The position numbers and the translations under genes were made by a program. From an uncultured Lachnospiraceae bacterium (GTDB taxonomy: Bacteria; Bacillota; Clostridia; Lachnospirales; Lachnospiraceae): DNA of 40,000 nt. The notes under the pieces were generated by a model, which saw only the letters and a program-made list of their open reading frames with translations, was not told the DNA's origin and made no database searches. The stretch lies in NCBI GenBank assembly GCA_947053345.1, contig CAMRSM010000009.1:27732-67731 (forward strand), written 5' to 3'. The first letter of the stretch is position 1. Every line of letters begins with the position of its first letter. This document shows, piece after piece, positions 157-38,521 of this stretch.

Positions 157-2274
157 ATGCCAGAAGAACGACCGGATGCAAGACAAGCGCATTCCACCCC
201 GACACAAAATAAAGCCGGCTGCCTTTTTATTTGCACGAACCTGTTCGCGCTCCTTTCCGCCGCCGTAAGCGCGTGGAATCTTGCACGGCAATACCCCCTG
301 ATGCGGGAATTCTTCCTCCTGTTCCTTTTCTCGGAAGCCGCCTCCCTCTGCCGTCCGCTCATTTTTCGGGTCAAATCCGGCACCCGTGGATATGCGGGAT
401 ATATACGCTGCTGCCTGACGGACTGGCTCACCGCCAAAGCGCAGAAAAAACTTTTGGCCACACGGGCATTTTTCCTTCTCGTGCTGATCTTCCTGCTCGC
501 TCTGCGCCCGGATTTTTTCAAAGCAAATATCATAATGCTGACCGGCATTGTAATAATTTTAGTACTGCTCGCCATGCGGGCAGCGGACACACTGCGGCAA
601 CGCTGCGGAAGGCGGCAGGATGACAGGGAATATGAAACGGCCGTTCAGGGGAAAGCCTGCCCACAGACAGAGCGCGGGGATGCATCATCGCATCTTACAC
701 AGGGTGTTTCCGCTTCCGCACAGACTAAACACTTGGAAACATCCCCGCAATCCGCGCCGCACACACCGGCACCCACACCAAAAAAGCGCATGAAAACCCT
801 CACAAAAATCGTGTCGGCCGCCGCCGCTTTCCTTCTCTATATTGTCCTGGGCGTACTTTTCTCCGGCTTTCCACAGCCGGAGATCAGCGACGGATACAAA
901 GAAAACTTTCATCCGGAATCCTTCTACGGCAGCGCCCCGCATTCCGGAACCGCCGCAGGCTCCGCGGAAGGAAACAGCACACAGGATGGTACCGCCCCAT
1001 CCGTCACGTGCAGCGACCGCGCCGTAATCCTTGAGGACAACAGCGAGGCGTTGATTGAGCGCGTGCGCATGATCCGGGGCGCAAAAGAGCGCATCATCCT
1101 CTCCACCTTCGATTTCCGCCCCGACATCAGCGGTAAAATCCTGCTCGCGGCGCTGCTTGATGCGGCAGAGCGCGGCGTTTCGATCAGGGTTGTCGTAGAC
1201 GGGGTCAGCGGGCTTTTGCGCATGGAACAAAATCCATACTTTTTTGCACTGTCCTCCCATGAAAATGCTGAGATCCGCATTTATAACCGCGTCAATCCGC
1301 TGATGCCCTGGCGGCTGATGGGGCGGCTGCACGATAAATATCTGGTTGCCGATGACACTGCGTACATCCTTGGCGGGCGCAATTCCTTCTCCTATTTCCT
1401 CGGCGAATGGCCGGGCCATAAAAATTACGACCGTGATGTTCTGGTCTACAACGCAGGCGGGGATACCGCAAGCTCGCTCTATCAGGTGGAAGCCTATTTT
1501 AATGAAGTCTGGAACCTCAAATATACCAGCACCTTCCACAACCGCGCGGACACCGCAGACCGCACCTGTGTTAAGCGGGCGGCCGCGGAACTAAAAGAAT
1601 TGTACGCGCAGTACCTTTCCGATTACCCTGCGGCAGAAACGGTACCGGATTATCTGACCATGACTTACCCGACGAAAAAGATCACGCTGCTCGCCAACCC
1701 GACTACGGCTTACGCCAAGGAACCGACCGTATTTTACGCGCTCACTGAACTAATGAAGCAGGCAAAGCACAGCGTCACCATCCACACGCCGTACATTATC
1801 GCGAACGGCCTGATGTACGACGCGTTTGCCCAGATCGCCGCCGCCGTGCCGGATGCCAGGATGATGACCAATTCCGTGGCAAATAACGGAAACCCGTTCG
1901 GCGCGGGGGATTACCGGGCAAATTTTGACAAAATCCGCGCCACGGGAATGCAGTTGCTTGAGTACGAGGGCGGTATTTCCTATCACGGGAAGAGCATCGT
2001 GATCGACGACGACCTCTCGATTGTCGGCTCGTTCAATATGGATATGCGCAGCGTCTACCTTGACACTGAACTGATGCTTGTGATCGACAGCAAGGAAGTC
2101 AACGCACAGCTCCGTTTCCTGCTTGCCCGCTACGAGGACGAATGCGCCATTGTACAGCCGGACGGAAGCCGCGTGTTCCCTACCGGCGTGGTTCCGCAGG
2201 AAGTTTCTTCAAAAAAAGAATTTAACATGAAAGTACTGTATAACCTGCTTCGATGGGCGAGAAGACTGCTGTAG
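157..2274 (+). CDS. Phospholipase D / cardiolipin synthase superfamily membrane protein (host gene)
   Basis: GGAGG RBS at 146-150. Several N-terminal hydrophobic segments. Two HKD motifs (HDKYLVADD and HGKSIVIDD). Confidence 0.85.
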   Translation: MPEERPDARQAHSTPTQNKAGCLFICTNLFALLSAAVSAWNLARQYPLMREFFLLFLFSEAASLCRPLIFRVKSGTRGYAGYIRCCLTDWLTAKAQKKLLATRAFFLLVLIFLLALRPDFFKANIIMLTGIVIILVLLAMRAADTLRQRCGRRQDDREYETAVQGKACPQTERGDASSHLTQGVSASAQTKHLETSPQSAPHTPAPTPKKRMKTLTKIVSAAAAFLLYIVLGVLFSGFPQPEISDGYKENFHPESFYGSAPHSGTAAGSAEGNSTQDGTAPSVTCSDRAVILEDNSEALIERVRMIRGAKERIILSTFDFRPDISGKILLAALLDAAERGVSIRVVVDGVSGLLRMEQNPYFFALSSHENAEIRIYNRVNPLMPWRLMGRLHDKYLVADDTAYILGGRNSFSYFLGEWPGHKNYDRDVLVYNAGGDTASSLYQVEAYFNEVWNLKYTSTFHNRADTADRTCVKRAAAELKELYAQYLSDYPAAETVPDYLTMTYPTKKITLLANPTTAYAKEPTVFYALTELMKQAKHSVTIHTPYIIANGLMYDAFAQIAAAVPDARMMTNSVANNGNPFGAGDYRANFDKIRATGMQLLEYEGGISYHGKSIVIDDDLSIVGSFNMDMRSVYLDTELMLVIDSKEVNAQLRFLLARYEDECAIVQPDGSRVFPTGVVPQEVSSKKEFNMKVLYNLLRWARRLL

Positions 2275-2447: not shown

Positions 2448-2787
2448 TCATTTTAATAAGAAAAAATCCCGAAAATAGAGCATTCTCAAAATCCCATGAC
2501 GAGATTCATGACAAGTTTTTCTTTATGGTTATACAGGGATTTCCCGTCTTGCCAGTGCCCGCTTGGCGGATTTTAAGGCTGATCCAGCTCCGGCAGTCCG
2601 CCAAGCGACATAAAAAGCGACAATACCCCTGCAAGCCAAAATAAAAGCTCCAATACCCCACAACAATGATGCCGACAGCAACGCTTACAGACACTATAGT
2701 TACTGTTACCTTGATCTTCCAGCAGTTCCAGCATCCATCCAGCTCACATATTTTTTATACCCCTATCTGATTGTTGATTTTCTATTT

Positions 2788-3525
2788 TTACATCCCCTTT
2801 CCGAGCGCTTTGATCGTGCTCTGCCCGACACCCCAGACCTGATCCTCCTTTGTCCACCCCTTTCTCTTCCAGTATGCCGCAGCTGCGGCTGCCGTCTTAC
2901 TGCCATATATCCCATCCACATCAAGTGGCTTCCCCTTGATATAGCCCACGCTGATCTGGTGGTTCAGGGCGAGCTGCAGCCAGACGATAGAATACCGGCC
3001 GGTCTGCTTCCCCACCTTCGCCGGGCTGGGCGCGGGGAGTGCGGTCTTGGTATATTTAATCCTTGGGTGCTTATACCAATGCGTCCATGGCCTGCCCTTT
3101 AACGGCGTGATACAAACGCCATAGTTAAACCCGCGCGCTTCCACCACATAGCCGCCGCCGATGTACACCCCGGCATGCCCTTTGTACCTCACACACACGC
3201 CCGGAAGTTCCGGGATGGTACCAATCGCCCCCTTGGCTGTTGCGGCGTTATAAGCCGCGTCCGCCGTGGTATCATAGGCCACGCCGGACTGTTCCCGCAC
3301 GAACCATTCCACCAGCCCGTGGCAGTCCGTCACCTGCCGCCCGATGTACCCCTTCACGGCAGGCAGGCGGGCGGCCGTGAACCACCCGCCGGGGTTGCGC
3401 CTTACCAGGTCAGTGTACATGAACCGTGTAAAGGTGCGCCCGTTCGTCCCCATCACATAGGGTACGCCCACCTTGTTTATGCAGAAGCGCGCCAGTCCCG
3501 CGTTGTCCATCTTCCCTGCCATCAC
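2788..3525 (-). CDS. Endolysin: NlpC/P60-type peptidase domain plus C-terminal peptidoglycan-binding domain
   Basis: DCHGLVEW (Cys) and GHAGVYIGG (His) motifs. C-terminal LQLALN...VDGIYGSKT PG_binding_1-like segment. Overlaps the holin stop by 4 nt. Confidence 0.88.
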   Translation of the reverse strand: MMAGKMDNAGLARFCINKVGVPYVMGTNGRTFTRFMYTDLVRRNPGGWFTAARLPAVKGYIGRQVTDCHGLVEWFVREQSGVAYDTTADAAYNAATAKGAIGTIPELPGVCVRYKGHAGVYIGGGYVVEARGFNYGVCITPLKGRPWTHWYKHPRIKYTKTALPAPSPAKVGKQTGRYSIVWLQLALNHQISVGYIKGKPLDVDGIYGSKTAAAAAAYWKRKGWTKEDQVWGVGQSTIKALGKGM

Positions 3526-3845
3526 ACATCCCCCTCCCTGCGCCGCCCAAGCTGCGCGAGCGCCTGCACCACCTTGTCATAGCCGACCATCGCCGCGAGC
3601 CATGACAGGAATACAAGCGCGAGCACATACACCGCCGCCCCTGCACTGAACGCCGTCCCCGACAGCACAAGGTAACCGGCGGATACCGCCACCGCAAGCA
3701 CCACCGCCACAATGCCCGCGAGCAGGTTTGGCGGCGGGTTCTTGCCCAGCTCACGCAGGAGCTTCTTCACCGCCTCCGTCACCAGCCCCGTCAGCGTCGA
3801 GACAGCCAACAGCCCAAGCAGAAAATCCCCATAGTCCATCCTCAT
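3522..3845 (-). CDS. Holin (about 107 aa, multi-TM)
   Basis: Internal start MRMDYG behind a purine-rich RBS. Hydrophobic helices and a charged C-terminus. Lies directly upstream of the endolysin. Confidence 0.7.
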   Translation of the reverse strand: MRMDYGDFLLGLLAVSTLTGLVTEAVKKLLRELGKNPPPNLLAGIVAVVLAVAVSAGYLVLSGTAFSAGAAVYVLALVFLSWLAAMVGYDKVVQALAQLGRRREGDV

Positions 3846-4207
3846 CTTCCCCCTTCCCCATCCTGCACCGCGTCCCCCGCGGCGGCACACATCCTCCCGG
3901 CTGCCTCCTCCCACAGCCGGCCTTCAAGCCCATACCCGCCACCGGCATCCGGCGGCCCCGCGGACTGCGCCCGCTCCCATAGCCGGTCGCCAAGCTCGTA
4001 CCTGCGTTCCCTCTGCCGATCCTTCGTTGTCCGGATCCACCCCATGACACCGCACTCCCCGCCGCACGCGGCAAAGACACAGGTGCACAGCGTGTCCGGG
4101 ATGCCGCCCGTCGTCCGGTACAGCCACAGCATCGCCGCGACAAACACCAGCAGGAACACCGCCATCGTGGCGAGCACGGCATCCATCGTTTTAACCTTCC
4201 TTTCCAT
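3842..4207 (-). CDS. Membrane protein of the lysis cassette (N-terminal TM, Cys-rich juxtamembrane segment)
   Basis: GAGGGGG RBS 6 nt before ATG 4207. TM segment AVLATMAVFLLVFVAAMLWLY. Confidence 0.5.
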   Translation of the reverse strand: MERKVKTMDAVLATMAVFLLVFVAAMLWLYRTTGGIPDTLCTCVFAACGGECGVMGWIRTTKDRQRERRYELGDRLWERAQSAGPPDAGGGYGLEGRLWEEAAGRMCAAAGDAVQDGEGGR

Positions 4208-4717: not shown

Positions 4718-4816
4718 TTATTTTCGCTTGTTGTTCCTATCGTCCAGATAGGCAAGCAGCGCGATCAGGAAATTACCACCCAAAAACAACAGGGTTAAAA
4801 TCTGGTATGTATCCAT
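4718..4816 (-). CDS. 32-aa Hol-Tox-like (holin-like toxin / type I toxin-like) hydrophobic peptide
   Basis: My translation: MDTYQILTLLFLGGNFLIALLAYLDDRNNKRK. GGAGGTGGTG RBS. Below the 60-aa cutoff of the ORF track. Single TM with a basic tail, matching the Hol-Tox pattern. Confidence 0.55.
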   Translation of the reverse strand: MDTYQILTLLFLGGNFLIALLAYLDDRNNKRK

Positions 4817-4881
4817 CCGCACCACCTCCCTTCTTTTGTAAGTGAGGGAGGCTACCACCTTGTAACACGGTGTCCACCTAA

Positions 4882-4910
4882 ACTATAGCATATCTTGTCA
4901 GGTGCTGCAA
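4882..4910 (-). promoter_or_regulatory. Promoter of the Hol-Tox-like mini-gene
   Basis: Minus strand TTGCAG (4905-4910), 17-nt spacer, TATAGT (4882-4887). In the leader, CCTCCC (4846-4851 on the plus strand as GGGAGG) can pair with the SD (4825-4830). Confidence 0.45.
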
Positions 4911-4911
4911 C

Positions 4912-4933
4912 AAAAAAACAGCGGGGTTCCCGC
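4912..4933 (-). terminator. Intrinsic terminator after the glycosyltransferase gene
   Basis: Minus strand GCGGG-AAC-CCCGC followed by TGTTTTTTTG. Confidence 0.55.
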
Positions 4934-4939
4934 ACAACG

Positions 4940-6838
4940 TCACAGCAGCATTGCCTTCAGCCTCCCCTTCCATTCCTCCGGGAGGCCTTCCGCCATCTTC
5001 AGGTATTTCATCGCATACTGCCGGTTCTGGTAAAAGACCTCCCTCAGGACGTATTCCCCGGGGTTTTCCCTCTTAAAGTCATGGTCGTGCCGGTCAAGGA
5101 ATGCATAGAAGCTGTCCCGGTCAAACCCCCAGGTATCCTCCATGATAAGCAGAATCCCCATGAAATACTTCGCATTCGCCTTTTTGAAGTTCCTGCTGTT
5201 TTCCTCAAAGGATTTCAGCTGGTGGCACGCCCAATAGACCAGCTTTAAATGGTGTCCTGCCTTCACGCCCCTGTCGAGGTCAAGGTCATATGCCGCCAGG
5301 AATGCCCTGGCATACTCGCGGTAGAACTCCTCCTCATAGCACCTGCCGTTGTACGTCCGGTTGAACGCGCTCCCCTCCCTCCATATCCAGCGGTAGTAGA
5401 CCGGGGATTTTTCACAGGCACCCCCCTCACCGTAAAGCACCCGCGCCATGATGTTCGCCCTGCGGTTGAAATAGACATCCTCCGACGTGTCCAGCCCGTC
5501 AAGGAACCATATCCCATTTTCCTTCAGGAACCCCCTCCGGTACAGCGTCCCGTGGACGACCTCGATGCAGTGGTACGGGGCCTGCGGGTTATCCTTTGCC
5601 ATGTCCACGTTGATGGACTCGCCGGTTACCACACACAGGCCACTGCCATGCCCCCGGAATGCTTCGTCAACCAGTTCCGCGGTGATCTCATCGTCGTGGT
5701 CAAGGAACGTCACCCACTCCCCCTTTGCCATCCGCAGCGCACGGTTCCGGTTGCCGCCCATCCGAAGGATCCCCGCATTGTACAGGATCCGCATGCCGTC
5801 CCTGCGGGCATACTCGTAATCCGGCCGCGTGGACGCATCGTCCGTCAGGATGACCTCGACCTGCCCCGCCCTGCTGCCGACCGCATCGTACAGCGCATGG
5901 ATGGTTGCCGCGGTATATGCATGCGACTCCCGCAGCGGGATCAGGACAGAAAGCTTTATGGTATCAAACGCCCTGCGCCACTTCCCGTACAGGGCTTCCT
6001 CCCGCGGTCTTGGTTCTGCCCCCAAAAAGTTACAGTATCCCCCGTAATCCTCAATGCCTGTGAGGCGTTTCACGCAGTCAAAGAAGAGGTACCAGGTCTT
6101 ACCATCCCCCTCCTTTTCCGGGAGGTATTCCCTGTCATGTTTCAGCCTGGCAAGGCATTCTTCCGGGAAGACCTCGTAATATTGCCCCACCAGCTCCGTT
6201 ATCATTTCAATCCGCTCATGGTGTGTCGTCCCGAAAAAGTCCGCCACCTTCCTTGTCACGGAATCCGGGTTATACATGAGGTCGAACGATATTTCCGGGA
6301 TGTACCGGATCCCGCCCTGCCTTTTGGCATGATAAAACGCCACCATGTTGAAAAAGGAGTCCTCATAGATCCGGATCCCCGGGTGGAACCATATCCTGTT
6401 CCGCAGGAGGAACGCCCTCCGGTAGATTTTCCCGTGCACCATCCAGTCAAGGCTTTCCGGCAGGACCTCCTCCCCGGTGAAGGAAGCATCCGCCTGCCTC
6501 CCGGCACATGATATGATGTCCTCCGTGATTTCCGCGTCATGGTACAGCGGGTCGAAGATGTTTTTCCTTACAATGTCATCCGCGTCCAAAAAAAGTACCC
6601 ATTTCCCGGTGGCCTTCCCCAGGCCGCGGGTTCTGGCGACCCCCGCGCCACGGTTCGTCCTCCCCCTCACGATGGTAACCCCCCATCCCGCCGGGAAGGC
6701 ATATGGCCTGTCCGAGGCATCGTCCGAAACGATGACCTCCACGTTGTCATACCCCGTGGCAAGGACGGACTGTACCGCCGCGGATACCGTGCCGTGCGCA
6801 TTGTACGCCGGTATGATGACCGATACTTTTACATTCAT
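4940..6838 (-). CDS. Tandem two-domain family-2 (GT-A) glycosyltransferase
   Basis: Two GT2 N-termini (VSVIIPAYN...VSDDAS...DADD and LSVLIPLRE...LTDDAS...DHDD). 632 aa. Confidence 0.88.
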   Translation of the reverse strand: MNVKVSVIIPAYNAHGTVSAAVQSVLATGYDNVEVIVSDDASDRPYAFPAGWGVTIVRGRTNRGAGVARTRGLGKATGKWVLFLDADDIVRKNIFDPLYHDAEITEDIISCAGRQADASFTGEEVLPESLDWMVHGKIYRRAFLLRNRIWFHPGIRIYEDSFFNMVAFYHAKRQGGIRYIPEISFDLMYNPDSVTRKVADFFGTTHHERIEMITELVGQYYEVFPEECLARLKHDREYLPEKEGDGKTWYLFFDCVKRLTGIEDYGGYCNFLGAEPRPREEALYGKWRRAFDTIKLSVLIPLRESHAYTAATIHALYDAVGSRAGQVEVILTDDASTRPDYEYARRDGMRILYNAGILRMGGNRNRALRMAKGEWVTFLDHDDEITAELVDEAFRGHGSGLCVVTGESINVDMAKDNPQAPYHCIEVVHGTLYRRGFLKENGIWFLDGLDTSEDVYFNRRANIMARVLYGEGGACEKSPVYYRWIWREGSAFNRTYNGRCYEEEFYREYARAFLAAYDLDLDRGVKAGHHLKLVYWACHQLKSFEENSRNFKKANAKYFMGILLIMEDTWGFDRDSFYAFLDRHDHDFKRENPGEYVLREVFYQNRQYAMKYLKMAEGLPEEWKGRLKAMLL

Positions 6839-22418: not shown

Positions 22419-22496
22419 GGAAAAGACCATTTCCCGTCCCCATTGTCCCAATTCCATGAATCGGTTGACCGGACAGATAAATGGTCTTTTTTATTT
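22419..22496 (+). ncRNA. Candidate ~75-nt structured small RNA convergent on the MuF-toxin stop codon
   Basis: Predicted start about 7 nt after the -10. A 12-bp closing stem AAAAGACCATTT (22421-22432) / AAATGGTCTTTT (22479-22490) is followed by TTATTT. No ORF with an RBS lies inside. Confidence 0.35.
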
Positions 22497-24089
22497 CCTG
22501 CTATATGCTTTTAAAAGGTTTTTATTCTTTATTACAATGATTTTTTCTACAAATTTTGTATGTTCTGAAGCATAAAGTCCTTTTATCTGCCTTTCAATAT
22601 CTTCTTCGGACAACGGACAGTCTGTAATATCAAAAATAAAGTTGGGAGATTGTTTCTTTTTCTTTGCAAGCATACCATAAAATAAATTTTTTCCTCTCCC
22701 CGTCGGAGATTTCAGATCAAACCTTTCCCCATCAATCAAATAATCGGGTGTCTGTATTCCTTGCGGAAACAACACTTGGGGCACAAACTCCACCGTTTTT
22801 CCATATTCTCCGCTTAGTATAGCGGCGACTTCCTTTTCTTGTTTTGTTGGTTGGAGTATGACATGTTTCCCGTCCACTTTATATGTTGTACCGTTTATTG
22901 CATATTCCTGCCTTTCAATAACAGTACCTTTTATTCCCTTTGTCCCTGTCCATTCCTTAGTAATATCCATGGGACTAATTTTATCAGAATCTTCTTTTCC
23001 TGTCCAGTGCACATTTTCGTCTCGATTTACTTCATCAAACTTTGTTTTTTCCCCACCATCTACAAAACTTTTCTTCCATTCCCCATAGCTCATATCGTCC
23101 GGAACATGGTACGTCTTCCCATCCTCGTCCCTTGCCGCCCGCTTTCCTGCCTGCCCAAAGTCATCCTCAAAATACGGAACGGTCGTGCTCCGGCAGAAGA
23201 CATGGAACGGCGGCGCGGTCACACCGGCCTGGTAATCCTTCATCGGGAATACCTGCCCATCAAGGCTGCGGCAAATTTCGGAGGTGTGGGAATCCAGCGT
23301 CGCCACGATCTCATACTGGTCAACCCCCAATTCGCAAAAACAGTCCTTCTGCGCCGCCGAGCTGAAATAAGCTTCCTCCGTCATGACAAGCCGTCCAGCA
23401 TTGTAACTGGAATTTTTCATCTTGCGCGCAATGGCATCAATGGCTTTCTGCGGATCTTGCCCCAGCATGATATTATGCGTCAGTTCGTTATGTACCTCCC
23501 CGATCAGCTTCTGGCGATTGCCCCAGACCCTTTCGGAAAAATTCTTCCCGTCCACAGCCCACGGTTTGCTGATAACCTTTTCAACCGCAGACTGGTCAAT
23601 CCCTGCAATATCCCAGCCTACCCCAAAGCCCTTCTGCAGCTCATAAGCCGTATGGTAGTAGCTATCCAGATAAACACGTTTCATAGCCGCATCCACATTG
23701 TCCAGCTGGTTTTTAAACATTACCTCGAGGCTCTGCTGTACTTGTAGCTTTAAAGCCTCAAGACGTGAGATGTGGAAGCGTGCCGAGGCGTTTTCCAGTT
23801 CCTTCATCCATTTCCCATCCAACTTATTTTCTTTCCCGTGACGGATATATTCCCCGACATCCCAGCGGAACTCCGTTAATTCATTTCCGGAAAGCATCCG
23901 CCGGGCTTGTGCCATCGACACCCCATTGTTGGCAGCAAACCGCTGGTACCACATACTGATCTTGCCTTCCAGTTCCCTCTCCGCCTGCCGGTATTGCCGC
24001 TCGACTTCTGCACACACAGCCGCCCCTTCCCGGTTCTGTGCCTCCTCAAGCTGTGAAAAGCGCAACTTCCAGTAGTCACTGTTTTTCAT
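22491..24089 (-). CDS. MuF / SPP1 gp7-family head morphogenesis protein with toxin-like C-terminal domain
   Basis: MuF core TLDSHTSEICRSLDGQVF...PPFHVFCRST. An extra ~180-aa AT-rich-encoded C-terminus carries TPDYLIDGERFDLKS. Confidence 0.88.
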   Translation of the reverse strand: MKNSDYWKLRFSQLEEAQNREGAAVCAEVERQYRQAERELEGKISMWYQRFAANNGVSMAQARRMLSGNELTEFRWDVGEYIRHGKENKLDGKWMKELENASARFHISRLEALKLQVQQSLEVMFKNQLDNVDAAMKRVYLDSYYHTAYELQKGFGVGWDIAGIDQSAVEKVISKPWAVDGKNFSERVWGNRQKLIGEVHNELTHNIMLGQDPQKAIDAIARKMKNSSYNAGRLVMTEEAYFSSAAQKDCFCELGVDQYEIVATLDSHTSEICRSLDGQVFPMKDYQAGVTAPPFHVFCRSTTVPYFEDDFGQAGKRAARDEDGKTYHVPDDMSYGEWKKSFVDGGEKTKFDEVNRDENVHWTGKEDSDKISPMDITKEWTGTKGIKGTVIERQEYAINGTTYKVDGKHVILQPTKQEKEVAAILSGEYGKTVEFVPQVLFPQGIQTPDYLIDGERFDLKSPTGRGKNLFYGMLAKKKKQSPNFIFDITDCPLSEEDIERQIKGLYASEHTKFVEKIIVIKNKNLLKAYSRK

Positions 24090-25674: not shown

Positions 25675-26904
25675 TCAATCAAAACTGAACGCATCCGGCA
25701 GCAGGAGCTTTGTCACTCCGTACCGCATTGAATCCATACCGTGGGAAAATTCGTGATCCGGCTTCCCTGTCAGCTTCCCGTCTTTATCCTTGCCCCAACA
25801 ATAGTTGTCAATCTCTTTCTTGAACTCCACACACCGCGGATGAACCACAATCTGGTAATTCTGTATCAGCTGGATACCGTGGTTCACGCTGTCATTACCC
25901 TTGCGGGAAGGCTCTGCCCGGATACCCTCTTCCTGAAGCTCCGCTATGCTTTTCGGTTCCGCGCTGTCACAGATGATCCTCTGTCCGCCGTACCCCATCT
26001 TTTTGATCTGCCCCGCTATCATCTTGTTTGTAGCGCCCGTTTCATACCATTCATCAAAAATATATATCCGCATGGCGGCGTTATCCACCATCTCACATAC
26101 AAAAGCGTTCGGGTCGGTGAAACCGAAATCAAGGTTGAACGCCGATTTTATACCGGGAATTGCCCTGACCGCGTCAATGTCAAAATCCTCACACACGACA
26201 TTGGTGTAGATCAATCCTTCTGCAATCCCCCATTCGCCTTCCCCCTCGATCCGGTAGCGGCGAGGGTTGTTTTCCCTCATTTTGAGGAAGATGCCGCGGT
26301 CAGCCCCATCCAGCCATTCATTGCATTGCCATGTGGTTGTTTTTACAAAAGTATCTTCATCGGGCGCATCAAAGAAACGGGCTTTCAGCCAGCTTGTGGC
26401 GCTCCACGGGTTGAATGTCAGGGTAATCTGCTTGAAATACCCTTCCGGCACTTCGCCGCGGATGGACAGGTCAAGCTTGTTGAAATCATCCTCATTCGTG
26501 ATCTCGTAGGCTTCCTCAATCCACACAAAACACAGGACACCTTTGTCAACCGAAATGGAAGTGATTTTTAATCCGTCATCCAGCCCCCGGAACAAAATTT
26601 TCTGCCCGGTCGAACGGCGGGTGATCTGCATCGGGGAGACCGTGCATTCAAAATGCCCGTCCAGCCCTAAGCGGTGGATTGCCCATTTCAAATCACTGTA
26701 CACCGAATCCCGCAGCGTATTGGAATAACGCCGGACACACAGGGCATTGCTCTGCGGATATTCAAACAGGCGGTAAATCATGTTCAGGGCTGTTGTCTTG
26801 CTTTTCTTTGACCCCCTCGAACCTTTACAGACACGGTATCTTTTCCGGGTATTCCAGAAGTCTGCATAACTTTTACCGACAACGTCCTGCAGTGATACTT
26901 TCAC
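25675..26904 (-). CDS. terL: Terminase large subunit (PBSX/Terminase_3-like)
   Basis: Walker A-like CKGSRGSKKSKTT. 409 aa. Follows terS. Confidence 0.92.
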   Translation of the reverse strand: MKVSLQDVVGKSYADFWNTRKRYRVCKGSRGSKKSKTTALNMIYRLFEYPQSNALCVRRYSNTLRDSVYSDLKWAIHRLGLDGHFECTVSPMQITRRSTGQKILFRGLDDGLKITSISVDKGVLCFVWIEEAYEITNEDDFNKLDLSIRGEVPEGYFKQITLTFNPWSATSWLKARFFDAPDEDTFVKTTTWQCNEWLDGADRGIFLKMRENNPRRYRIEGEGEWGIAEGLIYTNVVCEDFDIDAVRAIPGIKSAFNLDFGFTDPNAFVCEMVDNAAMRIYIFDEWYETGATNKMIAGQIKKMGYGGQRIICDSAEPKSIAELQEEGIRAEPSRKGNDSVNHGIQLIQNYQIVVHPRCVEFKKEIDNYCWGKDKDGKLTGKPDHEFSHGMDSMRYGVTKLLLPDAFSFD

Positions 26905-26915
26905 AGAGACACCAC

Positions 26916-27335
26916 CTATTCCTTCAGGTCATTCAGAAGAACAACCGGCTCAAGGTCTACGCTCGAATCCGTCTTCGTCGTATACCCATGCCTGCTCATC
27001 CAAAGCCCTGCAAGCTGCGATGGGATAACCCCCAGTTCAAACTTTGACCGCGCGTCCACCTCACACTCTTCTTTCATACGCGTGACCATGTCGCAAAACT
27101 TAGGGTTGTCTGCGTAAGTGGCGTAAAAAGCCTGCCTCGCAATTCCTGCATATACGCAGAATCCCTCAATGGTATAAGTCACGCTGCGCCGCAGTTCCTT
27201 GCTGACAAATTCTGAGTTTTTGGAGCTGAAGTCATGGGTAAGTACCATTTTGTTGTCACAGTCGAGTTTGTATGCTTCCCATGCTTCCTCCAGCTGTTTT
27301 GCACTGTTAAATTTTCTGTGTCTGCCCATGAACAT
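26916..27335 (-). CDS. terS: Terminase small subunit
   Basis: N-terminal GRHRKFNSAKQLEEAWEAY pattern. GGAAGGAGGGGG RBS. Upstream of terL. Confidence 0.8.
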   Translation of the reverse strand: MFMGRHRKFNSAKQLEEAWEAYKLDCDNKMVLTHDFSSKNSEFVSKELRRSVTYTIEGFCVYAGIARQAFYATYADNPKFCDMVTRMKEECEVDARSKFELGVIPSQLAGLWMSRHGYTTKTDSSVDLEPVVLLNDLKE

Positions 27336-27362
27336 GCCCCCTCCTTCCTTCGGGTTTATGGC

Positions 27363-27387
27363 AAAAAAGATGCCTCACATGGGCATC
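27363..27387 (-). terminator. Terminator-like hairpin 28 nt upstream of terS
   Basis: Minus strand GATGCC-CATGTGA-GGCATC followed by TTTTTT. Confidence 0.5.
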
Positions 27388-27467
27388 CTTTCGTTAATGA
27401 TCCAGCCGATATATGCATTTACCCTGCCACCGGGGATGATAACTCCCTCCAAACGTTTATAAAAACA

Positions 27468-27486
27468 CCCCCGGCATTGCCGGGGG
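27468..27486 (-). terminator. Intrinsic terminator closing the AT-rich small-gene module
   Basis: Minus strand CCCCCGGC-AAT-GCCGGGGG followed by TGTTTTTAT. Confidence 0.6.
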
Positions 27487-27533
27487 CATAAACATATTGG
27501 GGCGGGTATCTTCCGACACCTTTCTCATTTTAA

Positions 27534-27566
27534 ATTATAACATGGATTTAGGGGAATTGTGGGAAA
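27534..27566 (-). promoter_or_regulatory. Extended -10 promoter-like element (TGTTATAAT) with upstream TTTCCCA box
   Basis: Minus strand TTTCCCA (27560-27566), N17, TGTTATAAT (27534-27542). The same architecture recurs at 22275-22307 on the plus strand. Confidence 0.3.
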
Positions 27567-27654
27567 GTTGTTGATTTCGTATCGGTTTCCGAAATTTTGC
27601 TGCCCGACATGTCCATCCCACTTCCCCAGTATTACCCGGGAGGGATGGGGCGAA

Positions 27655-27816
27655 TTATTGGCATTTGAAAGTTACTTCATGTCCTGGATTTTCTGTGATG
27701 AGCTGCTTTTTTAAAGCATCAACCATCATATTGTTGTCAAGGGCAGCCTGGACTACATTGACCAGTTTTTTGCCGTCCAGATAAGCCCATACAGTTTTTC
27801 TTTTCATTCTTCTCAT
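27655..27816 (-). CDS. 53-aa hypothetical protein (third gene of the small-peptide operon)
   Basis: My translation: MRRMKRKTVWAYLDGKKLVNVVQAALDNNMMVDALKKQLITENPGHEVTFKCQ. AGAAGG sits 6 nt before the ATG. Confidence 0.4.
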   Translation of the reverse strand: MRRMKRKTVWAYLDGKKLVNVVQAALDNNMMVDALKKQLITENPGHEVTFKCQ

Positions 27817-27864
27817 ATCTTGCCTTCTTTCTCCCGGCGAAATCCCGCCGGGTGGGTGGTGTGG

Positions 27865-27948
27865 TTAGAAAAAAAGTAAAATCAATCCAACCACGACAAT
27901 GAGCAACCAAATAACCGCCATCACAAGCTTCAAAATGTTCTTTATCAT
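27865..27948 (-). CDS. 27-aa fully hydrophobic peptide (no clear RBS)
   Basis: My translation: MIKNILKLVMAVIWLLIVVVGLILLFF. No Shine-Dalgarno sequence was found. Confidence 0.3.
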   Translation of the reverse strand: MIKNILKLVMAVIWLLIVVVGLILLFF

Positions 27949-28010
27949 ATTGATTTTACAGACAGACTGTGATATCTTTTTAGGCAGGGGAGGTTTCCCT
28001 CCCCCGGAAC

Positions 28011-28130
28011 CTATCGGATGCTCTCTATAATCATTTTGATTACGGCTATGAGAGTTCCTATTTCGAGGGCAAGCTGAGTGAGTGCTCGTACCACTTTTAT
28101 CAGCTTGCCTATTTTTTTGTCCATCTGCAT
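28011..28130 (-). CDS. 39-aa amphipathic/hydrophobic peptide (first gene behind a consensus promoter)
   Basis: My translation: MQMDKKIGKLIKVVRALTQLALEIGTLIAVIKMIIESIR. GGAAAGGAGGAA RBS. Confidence 0.5.
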   Translation of the reverse strand: MQMDKKIGKLIKVVRALTQLALEIGTLIAVIKMIIESIR

Positions 28131-28157
28131 TTCCTCCTTTCCTCTCTTGATAATATA

Positions 28158-28186
28158 ATTATACATCATTTTTTATAAAATGTCAA
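28158..28186 (-). promoter_or_regulatory. Perfect-consensus sigmaA promoter with palindromic operator in the spacer
   Basis: Minus strand TTGACA (28181-28186), 17 nt, TATAAT (28158-28163). The palindrome TTTTATAAAA lies inside the spacer and a near copy lies at about 28192-28201. Confidence 0.65.
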
Positions 28187-28213
28187 CTATTTTTTATAAA
28201 GTAAATTAAATCA

Positions 28214-28242
28214 TTGACTAAATATAAAATATAGTGTATCAT
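28214..28242 (+). promoter_or_regulatory. Promoter of the small XRE regulator
   Basis: TTGACT (28214-28219), 17 nt, TATCAT (28237-28242). AAGGAGG RBS at 28249-28255. Confidence 0.45.
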
Positions 28243-28261
28243 ATAAAAAAGGAGGTATGGC

Positions 28262-28480
28262 ATGGACGTAAGGGAATATATCAAGCTATGTTGTGTGAAA
28301 AGAGGGAATATGTCAGAAGCGGAACTTGCCCGTAGGACAGGACAGACACCACAGAACATGAACAATAAACATAAGCGGAACACATTTAAAATATCCGAAC
28401 TAGAGAAGATAGCGGACGCATTGGACGCTGAATTAAAAATATCATTTATTGACAGGGAAACCGGGAATCCAATTATATAA
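28262..28480 (+). CDS. Small XRE-family HTH regulator (72 aa)
   Basis: HTH_3-like MSEAELARRTGQTPQNMNNK. AT-rich. Opposite orientation to the flanking phage genes. Confidence 0.8.
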   Translation: MDVREYIKLCCVKRGNMSEAELARRTGQTPQNMNNKHKRNTFKISELEKIADALDAELKISFIDRETGNPII

Positions 28481-28496
28481 AAATCCCCCACGACAC

Positions 28497-28518
28497 GGGA
28501 CGGCATTGATGCCGTCCC
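28497..28518. terminator. Perfect 10-bp palindrome hairpin downstream of the XRE gene
   Basis: GGGACGGCAT TG ATGCCGTCCC. Weak T-rich tracts lie on both sides. Confidence 0.5.
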
Positions 28519-28637
28519 GTTGCCTTTGTCCATGCTGTGATACCTCCATGGCGGCTGGTCGTCCGTTTTGTGGAACAGAATAGTATCCCCTGCCTTTTTA
28601 TCCATCATCGGATAATATGCTGTATAACATACAAAAA

Positions 28638-29057
28638 TCAACACTGCATAATTTGCAGATAGCGGTTAATTTTCTTCCCGATACTACTACGGTCAAGGTT
28701 TACCTCCCCCGCAATCTCCCGCAGCTTCCGCCCCTCGATGAACCTCATCTCAAAGATCTGCCGCACCTCGGGGTCACCGATCCCGTTGATGAATCCCTCA
28801 ACCTCCAGCATCTGCCGCCCGACCCTTTCCTGCCGCCCCCGGTAGATCCGGAGCATCCGCCCGATGCGGTCTGCCTCCACCGGGTCATACATCTGCACGC
28901 TGACTTGGTGCTCCGTGTATGGGAAATCGCGCGAGGAGGCTTTCACCTTCCCCGCGACAACCGGGATCTCTTTTTCCTGTAATGCCATGATACGCCGGAG
29001 CAATAACCCCTGTTCCCGCTTGAGCTTCTGGTAGCCCATCAGTCTCTGCTTGTCCAT
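28638..29057 (-). CDS. Late-gene transcriptional regulator with sigma-70 region-4-like HTH (RinA/ArpU/DUF1492-type)
   Basis: C-terminal IFEMRFIEGRKLREIAGEVNLDRSSIGKKINRYL. Last early gene before the packaging module. Confidence 0.72.
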   Translation of the reverse strand: MDKQRLMGYQKLKREQGLLLRRIMALQEKEIPVVAGKVKASSRDFPYTEHQVSVQMYDPVEADRIGRMLRIYRGRQERVGRQMLEVEGFINGIGDPEVRQIFEMRFIEGRKLREIAGEVNLDRSSIGKKINRYLQIMQC

Positions 29058-29891
29058 CCTGTCCCCCTTCCTGTATCCGGGATTCCCCCCAGTTCCAGTT
29101 CCATCTGCCAGCCCTCCGGCTCAAAATTCATCCAGAGCACTTCCCGCTTGAGCGAACCCGCCTGTGAACGGTATACGGTCTCCTCCCTGTGCCACCCACG
29201 CAGACGGTCATTGTAAAGCGCGCTGTCATACCCGCTCAGCAGCACCTTCCCCTTATGTGCCAGCAAAACATCCAGTAGCTCCTCATGGTTCTGGTCACGC
29301 GTCTCATGCCGGTACTGCTCCCCCCCCGCTCCTTGTCCCCAGCATGTATGGCGGGTCACAGTAGACCAAGGTGTTCCTGCTGTTGAAACGCCGGATCACC
29401 TCCACCGCGGGGCGGTGCTCGATCTGGACACCCCGGAGCCGTTCCGCGGCACACATGAGCCGCCCCGGCAGGCTGCCCCAATCCCGTGCCGCATAGGCAC
29501 GCTCTCTCCCCTGCACGTCGTTCTTCCAGCCTTCCCGGTGCCCGTTTGTCCGGAAGCCGTACCCCATGTTCAGCCGGACGCAGAAATCAACCGCCTTCTG
29601 CAGGCTATCCCCCGGCATCCTTGTAAATGTCCCCTCGTACACCTGCCTCGCATACGGCGTGTAATATATCTCATGCGCGAGGCGCTCCGGGTTCTTCCTG
29701 ATCCACTCAAACAGGTTCACAACATCCCCGTCAAGGTCATTCACCGTCTCGATATTGCTCCTTGGCTTGTTGAACAGCACCGCCCCACTCCCGAAATACG
29801 GTTCGAGGTAGCTGTGGTGTCCCGGGAAATGGCGGATGATCCACCCTGCGACCGACCATTTGCTCCCGGGGTATTTTATAATCGCCTTCAT
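29039..29891 (-). pseudogene. Dam-family N6-adenine DNA methyltransferase split by a frameshift in a G8 run
   Basis: N-terminal part has KYPGSKW, EPYFGSGAV and DPPY, then stops 13 codons later. The C-terminal continuation (EQYRHETRDQNHEELLDVLLAHKGKVLLSGYDSALYNDRL) lies in the next frame. The junction is the C8 run at 29320-29327, and removing one G restores a single ORF. Confidence 0.85.
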
Positions 29892-29908
29892 GCATGCCTC
29901 CCCCTGCA

Positions 29909-30460
29909 TCAATCCCTATGCACCAGCTTTGTATACCGGATACAGGTAATACTCTGCGAGCTAACCGACCCGCCAACTTTCCCCCACTGCTCCGCCATCG
30001 CCTTTTGATAACGCTCCTGCACGATCTCCCCGGATACCCTCATCCTGACCGCCCCCGCATTGGTCATGTATGTACATGGGGGAAAAGCAATAATCATATC
30101 CCATGCACCATCAACCCTATGTCCCGTGCCGTCCATTGTCCAAAAGTTGCAATTACCATTTAGCAGGGGCAGCACGTCAGCCTGTATGTGCCATTCCGGA
30201 TGCCCGCCGGAACAGGGCTCTATGTCACAGGAATAAGCCTCATGCCCCAACCGCCGGAACCCCGTGCAGACGCGCCGGCTTTCCTCGCAGGCCACCAGCA
30301 CGCGCATATGATGCCCTGCGTCCTGCCCAAAAAGGCTTAGCTGCCGGAAGCCGTTGTAATCCCCGCAGACTTCCCTTTTCCCCGCGCAGTTTTTCCCGTC
30401 ACCGTCACAGCATATCCTGATGCATGTCCGGCAGAGACAGGAATAACACCTTGTCCTCAT
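29909..30460 (-). CDS. Cys-rich N-terminal segment fused in frame to a DNA-methyltransferase-like domain (PPC motif)
   Basis: CYSCLCRTCIRICCDGDGKNC... is followed by MRVLVACEESRRVC...DMIIAFPPCTY. Assignment from memory of phage MTase-like proteins, unverified. Confidence 0.45.
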   Translation of the reverse strand: MRTRCYSCLCRTCIRICCDGDGKNCAGKREVCGDYNGFRQLSLFGQDAGHHMRVLVACEESRRVCTGFRRLGHEAYSCDIEPCSGGHPEWHIQADVLPLLNGNCNFWTMDGTGHRVDGAWDMIIAFPPCTYMTNAGAVRMRVSGEIVQERYQKAMAEQWGKVGGSVSSQSITCIRYTKLVHRD

Positions 30461-37264: not shown

Positions 37265-37488
37265 ACTTTTTCTCGCATATAACGAGAATTTTCTCCAAAA
37301 AAAATATTATCCAACGGAATCCCAAAAACTTTAGATAACTGCTTTGACTCATCATAATTTGGTATTTTAGTTCCCTTTTCCCACCGCCTTACTGTCGAAC
37401 GATCAACCCGCATTATATGTGCCGTTTCCTCTTGTGTAAGTCCAGCATTTACTCTTGCTGCTGCAAGGCTAATCTGTATCTCTGCCAT
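37261..37488 (-). CDS. Cro-like XRE-family HTH regulator
   Basis: LTQEETAHIMRVDRSTVRRWEKG. AAGGAGG RBS. Divergent from the repressor gene. Confidence 0.85.
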   Translation of the reverse strand: MAEIQISLAAARVNAGLTQEETAHIMRVDRSTVRRWEKGTKIPNYDESKQLSKVFGIPLDNIFFGENSRYMREKV

Positions 37489-37512
37489 GCTCTCACCTCC
37501 TTATTTTCCTAC

Positions 37513-37541
37513 ATTATATCTCGCTATTAGCGAGTTGTCAA
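37513..37541 (-). promoter_or_regulatory. Early lytic promoter (perfect consensus) with operator in the spacer
   Basis: Minus strand TTGACA (37536-37541), 17 nt, TATAAT (37513-37518). The 15-bp palindrome CTCGCTATTAGCGAG (37520-37534) fills the spacer. Further half-sites AAAGCGAGA (37547-37555) and TCTCGCTTT (37581-37589). Confidence 0.7.
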
Positions 37542-37571
37542 CCCTTAAAGCGAGATTTTTTAAACTTTTTG

Positions 37572-37600
37572 TTGCTTTTTTCTCGCTTTCATGGTACGAT
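37572..37600 (+). promoter_or_regulatory. Repressor (maintenance) promoter candidate
   Basis: TTGCTT (37572-37577), 17 nt with TGn, TACGAT (37595-37600). Overlaps a CTCGCT half-site. Confidence 0.5.
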
Positions 37601-37624
37601 ACTCTACAGAAGGGGGTTACTGTA

Positions 37625-38062
37625 ATGGCAGAAGACGAATATAAGACAATATTTTCCAAAAATTTGCGCTATTATATGAATTTGCGAAATAAGAATCAAA
37701 TGGATTTAATGCGAGATTTAAATCTTAGTTCTTCAACAGTTTCAAACTGGTGTACTGGATTAAAGCTACCACGAATGGATAAAGTGCAGTTATTGGCTGA
37801 CTACCTTGGTATACGTAAGTCTGACTTAATAGAAGAAAAACAATTGCCCACACACACCTCAAAAGACGAACGCGATATCAAGCGAGACCTCGACCGAATC
37901 ATGGGCGAAATCCGCAAAGGTGATAATGGTCCACTATATTACAATGGTGTGGAGATAAGCGATGCTTCCGTAAACCTACTCCAAAACGCAATAGAATTTG
38001 CCTTGAAAGAAACCAAGATAGAAAATAAGGAAAAATACAATCCCAACAAAAATAAAAAGTAG
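37625..38062 (+). CDS. ImmR/cI-like XRE-family phage repressor
   Basis: Start MAEDEYKT behind AGAAGGGGG. HTH NQMDLMRDLNLSSSTVSNWCTG. Followed by an ImmA-type protease gene. Confidence 0.85.
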   Translation: MAEDEYKTIFSKNLRYYMNLRNKNQMDLMRDLNLSSSTVSNWCTGLKLPRMDKVQLLADYLGIRKSDLIEEKQLPTHTSKDERDIKRDLDRIMGEIRKGDNGPLYYNGVEISDASVNLLQNAIEFALKETKIENKEKYNPNKNKK

Positions 38063-38521
38063 GTGATGTCTTTGGAAAATATTGAAAACAAATCCAGAAG
38101 GCTTATCCAATACTATGAGCGGATGACCGGAAGCCACGACCCTGTCAAAATTGCGGAATGTGCCGGAATAAGGGTTGCCATCATGCCGCTTGGAGAAATC
38201 GCCGGAAACTACATATTATTAAAACGCAAGCGTTGGATTTTTATAAACGACACCATCACAAAAGACAGCCCTTTATTCCGTGTCGTGGCAGCCCACGAGC
38301 TTGGTCATGCCCTGCTACACCGCAAAGAGAACTGTGCTTTTATTAAAAATCATACCTTGCTTCAAACTTCAGGGATTGAGCGCGAAGCTAATCTGTTTGC
38401 TGCATATTTACTTATCACAAACGATATGCTGTCAGATTATACTGGATATACACAAGAGCATTTTTGCAAATGCACAGGATATCCGCAAGAGCTGATTGAA
38501 TTGAGACTGAAAAATATATAA
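38063..38521 (+). CDS. ImmA/IrrE-family zinc metalloprotease (anti-repressor protease)
   Basis: HELGHALLH (HExxH). Adjacent to the repressor. Confidence 0.85.
   Translation: MMSLENIENKSRRLIQYYERMTGSHDPVKIAECAGIRVAIMPLGEIAGNYILLKRKRWIFINDTITKDSPLFRVVAAHELGHALLHRKENCAFIKNHTLLQTSGIEREANLFAAYLLITNDMLSDYTGYTQEHFCKCTGYPQELIELRLKNI

Follow-up and report, generated by a model that had tools for sequence, protein, structure and literature searches.

Why should a temperate phage carry, between the gene for its late regulator and terS, an AT-rich island of about 1 kb that codes for little more than a small DNA-binding protein and a few tiny hydrophobic peptides? The question is raised by a stretch of 40,000 nucleotides from an uncultured Lachnospiraceae bacterium (GenBank assembly GCA_947053345.1, contig CAMRSM010000009.1, positions 27,732 to 67,731; hereafter the window, in whose numbering positions are given). 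An initial annotation, made from the letters alone, had read the island as a repressor-gated toxin, in which an XRE-family gene stands divergent from a strong promoter driving three short open reading frames (ORFs). Comparison with related loci indicates that the island is a mobile autonomous cassette, or moron, built on two small membrane peptides, here named PepA and PepB, and that the conserved unit is PepA, a hairpin and PepB, which is not the unit drawn in the initial annotation. The recurrence of this core, coding selection on its peptides, covariation of regulators with operators and of RNA helices with themselves, and conservation of signals on the opposite strand are the observations from which we argue. 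The best reading of them, and one that we hold to be evenly poised between right and wrong, would be a type I toxin-antitoxin-like module provided with a dedicated repressor; the toxicity of the peptides, their repression, the antisense transcript and the biological role are what we infer.

Homologs of PepA form 273 clusters at 90% identity in a large protein collection (95 clusters at 50% identity), with single variants present on up to 442 contigs. The peptide was recovered at 56 loci in Lachnospiraceae genomes among one-genome-per-species bacterial assemblies, and is also encoded by the Clostridioides difficile phages phiCDKH01, phiMMP01 and phiCD24-1 and by the Dorea phage DO134P1, the record of phiCDKH01 leaving the gene unannotated. 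In nearly all loci a hairpin follows 5 nucleotides (nt) after the PepA stop codon, and about 60 nt after the stop there begins a homologous PepB of 26-34 amino acids (aa). Counting the prophages of Lachnospiraceae together with the phages of C. difficile and one of Dorea, more than 60 loci have this PepA-hairpin-PepB core; the module is thus self-contained, as had been proposed, and it recurs, so that the island is not junk. The further expectation of the XRE gene and the peptides as a recurring gene pair fails, as the regulator can be exchanged for others, of four fold types or more in all, and in some loci is placed at the downstream end of the operon. Relatives were found only at the protein level, a blastn search ('distant' mode) of positions 27340-28640 against a phage collection yielding no match, and an Rfam scan of 27300-28700 at E <= 1 returned chance-level matches only. 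The relatives are in Lachnospiraceae, many of them from the mouse gut, and one metagenome contig is near-identical over the module (2183 of 2198 aligned bases). Copies number up to four, at least, in one genome (L035, L036, L038 and L054, where L numbers denote the loci compared), and contigs frequently end at the cassette. Decayed copies, with PepB disrupted or the promoter lost, are seen in L010, L028, L049 and L057.

All three short ORFs of the initial annotation exist, but the length of 39 aa given for the first of them is probably too great. PepA most likely starts at the second ATG (28124) and comprises 37 aa beginning with MDKK, because this codon lies 8 nt after GGAGG and is where the PHROG profile sets in, and because the first ATG is missing from many homologs. 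The profile in question, phrog_38429, represents a family without annotated function and matches PepA over its full length (E 3.9e-11, residues 3-38 on profile positions 1-36 of 37). The N-terminal half of PepA is a cationic amphipathic helix (hydrophobic moment, muH, 0.44-0.55) and its C-terminal half is hydrophobic (Kyte-Doolittle value 1.75 for residues 19-36). PepB reaches a Kyte-Doolittle hydropathy of 3.32 over 18 aa and ends in LLFF, with no charged C-terminal tail. Thus both PepA (37 aa) and PepB (27 aa) are small hydrophobic or transmembrane peptides of fewer than 60 aa, as is typical of type I toxins. Over 52 distinct cassettes the ratio of nonsynonymous to synonymous polymorphism (pN/pS) of PepA is 0.23 in frame versus 0.80 and 1.73 in the other frames; over 44 distinct cassettes that of PepB is 0.36 versus 0.62 and 2.14, its diversity by codon position being 0.44/0.17/0.56. 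Since the in-frame ratios are low and diversity is periodic by codon position, both ORFs are real genes kept by purifying selection.

The hairpin after the PepA stop codon, already marked in the initial annotation, is likewise conserved: 96% of its cells are paired across the alignment, and it keeps its position with compensatory variants of the two arms (GGGGAAGG/CCTTCCCC) and with other sequences in the C. difficile phages and L056. Its candidacy as a terminator was rejected, the T-run being missing on both strands. The second hairpin, between PepB and the third ORF, is not conserved across loci, nucleotide diversity (pi) downstream of PepB being 0.64. Profile searches provided no familiar name for either peptide: in Pfam neither had a match at E <= 1 other than to PSMalpha (E 0.063, not significant), and none of the known type I toxin families there (Hok/Gef, Fst, Ldr, TisB, Ibs and others) gave a significant profile match. 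A sequence search of the PDB with the PepA profile recovered only chance matches to Crk SH3 domains (E >= 0.19). In full-text literature searches the PepA motif LTQLALEIG went unmentioned, and nothing relevant was found on antisense-RNA type I toxins in Lachnospiraceae.

The promoter of the operon was recovered as first described, a perfect TTGACA-17-TATAAT at 28186..28158 on the minus strand with a score of 12/12, in a region that contains 11 promoter-like sites against 3.8 +/- 2.2 in shuffles. The palindrome in its spacer, TTTTTTATAAA, and a second copy of it are the only exact occurrences in 40 kb, at 28169 and 28190, 21 bp apart; with at most one mismatch there are 7 matches against 1.0 expected. 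The adjacent 72-aa gene at 28262-28480 is, as proposed, an XRE-type regulator (HTH_26, E 9.4e-8, 32.6 bits versus a cut-off of 22), scoring above the gathering threshold of the HTH_26/HTH_3 models that delimit XRE/Cro-C1 proteins, and its family comprises 627 clusters. Across loci the -35 and -10 hexamers, the 5' untranslated region and everything downstream are kept, and the 17-nt spacer varies with the type of regulator. When the adjacent small DNA-binding genes were clustered, each cluster proved to go with a particular spacer sequence, palindromic in most cases and in many with one further copy upstream. Thus, every locus with the XRE type of the window, placed divergently (the window, L014, L016, L025, L027, L045, L050, L094 and L095), has TATAAAAAAT(A/G)(G/A)TG in the spacer, for example TATAAAAAATAGTG, and a second copy upstream. 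Four loci with an AbrB/MazE-like regulator have TCATTGGTTACCAATGA; two types of ribbon-helix-helix (RHH)-like regulator go with ATTCGTACGAAT (L026, L029, L066-L071) and GCATATTTAAACTATGC (L033, L034, L038, L058). Among the downstream regulators, a co-transcribed XRE type goes with CCACGTTATAACGTGG (L051, L052, L056, L059, L062), a co-transcribed protein that is RHH-like by eye, with no Pfam match, with TATACGTACGTATA (L004-L009, L019), and an HTH_59 protein in phiMMP01 with TCACGTATGCGTGA. The Pfam support for these assignments is firm for XRE and HTH_59, just sub-threshold for the AbrB/MazE-like type (22.9 versus 24.7 bits) and sub-threshold only for RHH.

The comparison is strong evidence that control of the promoter lies with the repressor that accompanies it, and the earlier proposal of a strong promoter gated by a repressor gains support from each regulator family co-occurring with its own palindromic spacer operator. 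The regulator probably acts on DNA and not on the peptides, because a constant payload could hardly bind four unrelated folds, and its control would be exerted at the operator only. A type II system, with a co-evolving protein antitoxin that binds the toxin, is not what was found: near-identical PepA and PepB occur with at least four unrelated regulator types, and in L072-L078 with none. An obligate pairing of XRE gene and peptides, considered as a candidate, was rejected, both because other regulator types accompany PepA/PepB and because the XRE gene occurs without the peptides in L086-L093. There (about 2690-3220) a 51-aa gene (MKFTWNIVHGCDLEDGTPTEW...) is driven directly by the XRE type and the operator promoter of the window, PepA and PepB being absent, and the locus is part of another island, which also holds HicAB, Phd/YoeB and an immunity protein with Imm26/Imm51 domains. 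A homolog of the 51-aa gene lies after PepB in L026.

A further layer of control is suggested by the folding of the window mRNA, in which a start-codon box with the PepA AUG, GCAGAUGGAC, pairs with an anti-start box, GUCUGUCUGU, in the intercistronic spacer. The pairing survives changes on both sides across classes of cassette, the start-codon and anti-start boxes being CAGATGGAC and GTCCATCTG in L048, CAGATGGAT and ATCCATCTG in L027, GGAATGGATA and TATCCATTC in L004, GATAATGGAAA and TTTCCATTATC in L051, GGAAATGGAG and TCCCATTTCC in L059, and GAATGGAGA and TCTCCATT in L046. The copies of C. difficile phages with a GTG start are included in this pattern, with GTGGTCA and TGACCAC in phiCDKH01 and GTGACT and AGTCAC in phiMMP01. 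The mean duplex energy is -14.4 kcal/mol for cognate boxes versus -9.1 kcal/mol for non-cognate ones (permutation p 5e-5, 18 classes), and 87% of the cells of this helix are paired when read as sense versus 70% as antisense, 96 G.U cells being valid in the sense strand only. The anti-start box sits at the position of a would-be Shine-Dalgarno sequence of PepB, which has none, and the helix would hide the two initiation regions simultaneously. Were the PepA start opened by a ribosome, the PepB start would be freed as well, resulting in translational coupling at a distance along with a general damping. Structure of the toxin mRNA that restricts initiation is common, if not universal, in type I systems; here it takes the form of a covarying helix that sequesters the PepA start codon.

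Signals on the opposite strand suggest that this stretch may be read in the other direction as well. A sigma-A promoter predicted on the opposite strand has TTGATT, a 17-nt spacer and TGnTATCTT, with an extended -10, and in 49 distinct cassettes it is held at a fixed position, TTG being kept in 44, TAnnnT in 46 and the TG extension in 41. Cassettes devoid of the TG extension mostly carry TATAAT or TATATT as the -10 (L003, L037, L072, L040, L042), a trade-off between extension and hexamer quality that looks compensatory. Such a promoter would also explain why CAYA and TA in the spacer, both outside the mRNA helix, are invariant. The predicted transcript folds into three hairpins, one at the 5' end, one in the middle and a terminator with a U-run behind its stem; the minimum free energy is -51.4 kcal/mol and the z-score -4.1 in the window (none of 200 shuffles was as stable), and the same three-hairpin architecture is found in L016 (z -5.6), L004 (z -5.2) and phiMMP01 (z -6.1). 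The conserved and covarying post-stop hairpin, with its missing T-run, is accounted for if the antisense transcript starts there, as it would then supply the 5' stem-loop. The terminator stem joins PepA codons 5-8 with codons 16-19 and covaries even where the amino acids differ (GGCAAGCTG/CAGCTTGCC, GAGTTCAG/CTGAACTC, GAGTTCGG/CCGAACTT, GAGCTGAG/CTCAGCTC). Its cells are paired in 90% of cases as antisense versus 81% as sense, with 45 G.U cells valid in antisense only, and at one stem position 35 of 49 sequences have a C-A mismatch in sense that becomes a G.U pair in antisense. Three conserved features that make sense only on the opposite strand thus predict an RNA of about 135 nt antisense to PepA.

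For all three helices together in alignment A2, 12 pairs are changed on both sides versus 5.8 +/- 1.4 in shuffles (0 of 500), and 87% of the cells are paired versus 35-54% with slid partners, a control that is flattering because the structure was partly derived from the same sequences, and of whose bias the double-sided changes are free. In some classes MAFFT shifts the anti-start box by one column, which inflates the 'not paired' counts of the start/anti-start helix and leaves the cross-class duplex test unaffected.

Taken as a type I-like module, the cassette would be kept silent by three locks. The consensus sigma-A promoter would be closed by the adjacent small repressor, here the 72-aa XRE protein, bound to the spacer operator. 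The mRNA would fold back such that the PepA start codon pairs with the box at the PepB ribosome-site position, both being masked and opening together. Lastly, the opposite-strand promoter and terminator would yield the RNA of about 135 nt antisense to PepA. On failure of the locks PepA and PepB would damage or perturb the membrane, the likely purpose being prophage addiction, abortive infection or exclusion. The mRNA fold and the predicted antisense RNA fit this as additional layers of negative control, in line with a harmful product. A more ambitious synthesis, which we advance tentatively and regard as doubtful, joins these elements into a new type I-like family with two co-translated membrane peptides and three independent locks, which a mobile moron spreads among the phages of C. 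difficile and of gut Lachnospiraceae. The exchange of repressor and operator specificities, with the payload staying the same, would on this view be the mark of an arms race akin to heteroimmunity. The peptides would fire by zygotic induction on entry of the cassette into a cell that has no cognate repressor, and the conserved antisense RNA would cross-protect co-resident copies.

Several points weigh against the type I reading and lead to a different view of the same peptides. A toxin held by nothing but a repressor on the same element offers no obvious addiction logic, and no known type I family is matched, PepA and PepB having no match in NCBIfam or PADLOC either. The mRNA lock is not universal, as the variants in L060-L065 have their own Shine-Dalgarno sequence for PepB and no anti-start box was found there, and the conservation of the antisense promoter partly overlaps the anti-start box and the PepB start, so that these signals are not fully independent. 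PepA is unusually conserved for a generic membrane toxin, with D2, K7, K10, T16, Q17, E21, G23, T24, K30 and S35 invariant among aligned close homologs, and such conservation would be just as compatible with a specific partner protein and a role that does not kill, for instance superinfection exclusion. A benign moron of lysogenic conversion, in which PepA and PepB form a small membrane complex at steady, low, autoregulated expression and act on a specific, conserved host or phage target without killing, for instance by blocking the injection of superinfecting DNA or by modulating a membrane enzyme, is accordingly a rival that we judge unlikely and still take seriously. It would explain why PepA stays about 90% identical across phages with unrelated structural modules, many of its polar residues being invariant as expected of a specific partner, and why as many as four copies are tolerated in one genome without apparent harm. 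Negative autoregulation of a strong promoter is moreover a standard route to constant expression, several groups having the regulator downstream in the same operon, and cargo of defence type (TIR, DUF4747, DUF6731) adjoins the cassette. What such a function leaves unexplained is the stacking of three negative controls, with a masked start codon and a second cistron devoid of a Shine-Dalgarno sequence, which is typical of toxic peptides and not of constitutively useful membrane proteins; the existence of decayed copies and the mostly larger size of the exclusion proteins known so far also speak against this rival.

If the peptides were not the point of the cassette, the regulator, promoter and PepA-PepB leader might chiefly serve to drive and tune downstream cargo, here the third ORF (ORF53), the small ORFs and RNA structures then amounting to a translational or attenuation-type leader. 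The varying gene after PepB, the read-through expected from hairpins after PepA and PepB that have no T-runs, and the direct driving of small cargo by the same XRE type and operator in L086-L093, where PepA and PepB are absent, would suit such a portable expression platform. We nevertheless find it improbable: purifying selection acts on the amino-acid sequences of both peptides, in contrast to most leader peptides, many loci have nothing on the same strand after PepB (in L066-L071 the next gene is convergent and in L004-L009 there is the regulator only), and the antisense signals aim at PepA itself. Most improbable of all is an accessory role in lysis timing, with a holin/antiholin-like or depolarising pair of peptides fired late from beside the late operon, which the initial annotation had entertained as holin-like killing. 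The products are small membrane peptides and the cassette often lies between the late regulator and terS; yet the lysis region of the window, with an NlpC/P60 enzyme (2788-3525) and a membrane-protein ORF (3522-3914), is 24 kb away, and in place of a late promoter the cassette is served by one of sigma-A type, with a repressor of its own. Loci differ in how the cassette is oriented relative to the late genes, and it also occurs inside a diversity-generating retroelement and beside IS30-like transposases. Neither the site by an endolysin in a lysis cassette nor the charged C-terminal tail by which holins are recognised is seen, PepB having no such tail. Two-peptide or leaderless bacteriocins are secreted cationic peptides with an immunity gene and export (ABC transporter) genes alongside; here neither a transporter nor an immunity gene was found in the window or in the inspected neighbourhoods, and PepB is a plain transmembrane segment.

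Among known systems, the closest in logic to the type I-like cassette would be tisB/istR-1 and hok/sok, and the closest in setting the prophage type I modules of Bacillus subtilis and C. difficile. In the SOS-controlled tisB/istR-1 system of Escherichia coli a small membrane peptide is shut by a repressor, the primary mRNA is structurally inert, and an antisense RNA is made from a constitutive promoter. The cassette resembles it in joining repressor, (predicted) antisense RNA, structured mRNA and small membrane peptide. It differs in that the repressor is dedicated, encoded by the cassette and of several interchangeable folds, that of tisB being LexA; in that the predicted antisense RNA is cis-encoded and overlaps almost the whole ORF; in having two co-transcribed peptides; and in that PepA and PepB have no sequence similarity to TisB in Pfam. 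In hok/sok of plasmid R1 a fold-back between the 5' and 3' ends of the mRNA hides the start, 3' processing activates it, mok overlaps hok, and there is no protein repressor. Shared with it are a long-range mRNA fold-back that masks a start, a presumed coupling to a second reading frame and residence on a mobile element. The helix of the cassette, in contrast, joins two start regions, processing there being only conjecture; PepA and PepB are separate cistrons in place of the overlapping mok and hok; and the cassette has a repressor and a Gram-positive host. Morons of lambdoid phages are autonomous promoter-gene-terminator insertions, a structural category that leaves the function unspecified, and the cassette is like them in its own promoter and terminator, deviating composition, insertion between conserved phage genes, and variable orientation and context.

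The prophage-borne modules bsrG/SR4 and txpA/RatA of B. subtilis and CD0956.2/RCd10 and others of C. difficile are proposed stabilisers of their prophages (PMC6563280, PMC7699646). Like these, the cassette is prophage-borne and has small transmembrane peptides and a convergent cis-antisense RNA, the latter as a prediction. In the type I toxins of C. difficile the N-terminal region is hydrophobic and the C-terminal one rich in lysine (PMC6563280). The charge layout of PepA is the reverse of that in CD0956.2-like toxins, with a charged N-terminus and a hydrophobic C-terminus, PepB has no charged tail, and a dedicated repressor and a second peptide are undescribed for the B. subtilis and C. difficile systems. 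The match to phrog_38429 concerns PepA over its full length and says nothing on PepB, the regulators or the RNA elements. By these profile comparisons (Pfam, NCBIfam, PADLOC) the PepA/PepB cassette is outside every described toxin family searched, and its two peptides and exchangeable dedicated repressor set it apart.

A 37-aa gene without annotated function, some variants of which are on hundreds of gut-metagenome contigs and in sequenced C. difficile phages, would thus, if the type I reading is true, represent one more toxin-antitoxin-like family, and a widespread one, in phages that infect major gut commensals and a pathogen. The operon, tiny as it is, would moreover be a clear case of layered control, with a repressor, a folded mRNA and an antisense RNA all acting on it. 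The matched pairs of small repressor and operator on one strong promoter could serve the genetics of Clostridia as orthogonal switches or counter-selection markers; type I toxins of C. difficile have already been used in such genetic tools (bioRxiv 10.1101/2020.03.04.976019).

Table 1. Features of the cassette and of the surrounding prophage in the window. A full stop marks features assigned to neither strand.
Feature	Position	Strand	Remarks
Lysis enzyme, NlpC/P60 family	2788-3525		start overlapped by the membrane-protein ORF at 3522-3914
terL	25675-26904		
terS	26916-27335		GP3_package match
Intrinsic terminator-like hairpin ending the peptide operon	27465..27489	-	upstream of terS; 11 pairs, 8 of them G-C, 3-nt loop, then TTTTATAAAC
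ORF53, 53-aa soluble basic protein	27655..27816	-	probably co-transcribed; variable cargo, outside the core
Second G+C-rich hairpin	27833..27852	-	PepB/ORF53 gap; no T-run; read from sequence
PepB, 27-aa single-pass transmembrane peptide MIKNILKLVMAVIWLLIVVVGLILLFF	27865..27948	-	no Shine-Dalgarno sequence
Predicted antisense sigma-A promoter	27950..27978	+	-35 abuts the PepB start codon
Anti-start box (mRNA)	27958..27967	-	partner of the PepA start region; 10-13 nt upstream of the PepB AUG
Predicted cis-antisense RNA, about 135 nt	27984..28119	+	complementary to PepA codons 3-37 and the post-stop hairpin
Post-stop hairpin GGGGAGG-(loop)-CCUCCCC	27987..28004	.	5 nt after the PepA stop; no U-run on either strand
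PepA, 37-aa peptide MDKKIGKLIKVVRALTQLALEIGTLIAVIKMIIESIR	28011..28124	-	phrog_38429; alternative ATG at 28130 gives 39 aa
Predicted antisense terminator	28068..28119	+	stem 28068-28077/28100-28109, then UAUUUUUUUG (28110-28119); six pairs changed on both sides
Start-codon box (mRNA)	28119..28128	-	contains the PepA AUG; 5' arm of the helix; 87% paired in sense
Shine-Dalgarno GGAGG within AAAGGAGG	28133..28137	-	8 nt upstream of ATG 28124; nearly invariant in alignment A2
Operon promoter TTGACA-17-TATAAT	28158..28186	-	12/12; operator copy in the spacer; both hexamers conserved across loci
Candidate XRE operators, two direct copies	28169-28179 and 28190-28200	.	only exact copies in 40 kb
Promoter-like site of the XRE gene, TTGACT-17-TATCAT	28214..28242	+	10/12; mirror image of the peptide promoter
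72-aa XRE-family regulator	28262..28480	+	HTH_26; presumed repressor of the peptide promoter
Convergent terminator zone, XRE gene versus late-regulator gene	28486..28520	.	minus-strand terminator-like site 28500..28486; perfect 12-nt palindrome 28495-28520
Late regulator, sigma-70 region-4	28638-29057		
Lysogeny genes, XRE-type repressor and ImmA/IrrE protease	37487-38521	+	

The contexts in which the cassette is found vary. Between the late regulator and terS it has the same orientation as terS in the window and in the C. difficile phages, and the opposite orientation in L004-L009 and L066-L071. The flanks of L004-L009 and L028 in this gap code for a CAP12-PCTIR TIR protein, DUF4747 and DUF6731 proteins and a protein that is Abi_2-like by eye. 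The gap behaves like a hotspot for accessory genes with variable cargo of defence type, and the cassette marks it as a place where such genes accumulate. Genes of toxin-antitoxin type also adjoin some cassettes, namely those for a HicB-like antitoxin and for a Gp49 toxin that is accompanied by an HTH_3 protein. In L072-L078 (about 4800-5460) the cassette lies inside a diversity-generating retroelement, between the target gene with an FGE-sulfatase fold and the genes for bAvd and the reverse transcriptase, with no adjacent regulator and with a weak -10 hexamer (TAGAGT). A divergent PepA/PepB variant in L060-L065 (about 4980-5250), from Lacrimispora, Clostridium and Mediterraneibacter genomes, lies next to an IS30-like transposase and is oriented divergently from it; its PepA ends in ...AVIRFIIL and its PepB has its own GGAGG. 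An empty site, with the same terS and no cassette, was found in none of the contigs that reach far enough upstream, L096-L098 all carrying the cassette, four other contigs being too short upstream to tell.

The gene after PepB also varies by locus. ORF53, which the initial annotation had counted into the module, belongs instead to a separate and very common family of small proteins, with 1314 homologous clusters and one variant on 478 contigs, and relatives in L079-L085 (4001-4162) lie in the early region of prophages, after the integrase and a CI-like repressor, with no PepA/PepB nearby. The idea of ORF53 as an RHH-like third component was rejected, its family being found independently of PepA/PepB. 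Downstream of it, the roughly 165 nt between its stop codon and the operon terminator (27490-27654) contain no convincing ORF.

The window itself is a temperate myovirus-type prophage with its genes mostly on the minus strand. Genes for recombination and replication (YqaJ, RecT, RusA) are present, the order around the island is DNA methyltransferases, late regulator, island and terS, and the structural genes include those for portal, a MuF-family protein, capsid and sheath. The G+C content is 0.405 for the island (27455-28520) and 0.338 for the core (27865-28260), versus 0.507 for the window, with flanks of 0.50 and 0.57. The AT-rich island of about 1 kb is therefore real, and the description of its surroundings as a GC-rich phage is valid in relative terms only. 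The bracketing by terminator-like hairpins was likewise recovered, on the left at 27489..27465 (minus strand) and on the right as the palindrome 28495-28520 together with the minus-strand site 28500..28486.

Some other features of the prophage deserve mention in their own right. Its apparent lysogeny switch (37487-38521, plus strand) consists of a 191-aa repressor of the XRE/CI type followed by an ImmA/IrrE-type M78 metalloprotease, an arrangement of the anti-repressor protease kind, and bears no relation to the cassette's small XRE gene. A D12-class adenine methyltransferase (29039-29912, minus strand) is broken into overlapping ORFs of 202 and 106 aa by one extra G relative to the near-identical contig L096, where the gene is intact with 289 aa; a frameshift mutation, an error of sequencing or a phase-variable tract may lie behind the split. 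Adjoining the portal gene, a 532-aa protein (22491-24089, minus strand) has, besides a Phage_Mu_F head-morphogenesis domain, a CdiA_C toxin domain at its C-terminus (E 5.8e-22) and looks like a MuF-fused polymorphic toxin packaged by the phage. Finally, a 705-aa ORF (157-2274, plus strand) at the end of the prophage, just past the lysis genes and on the strand opposite to theirs, codes for two PLD-like domains (PLDc_2, E 9.5e-34); it may belong to the host, or to the phage as cargo, or encode a nuclease or phospholipase for defence.

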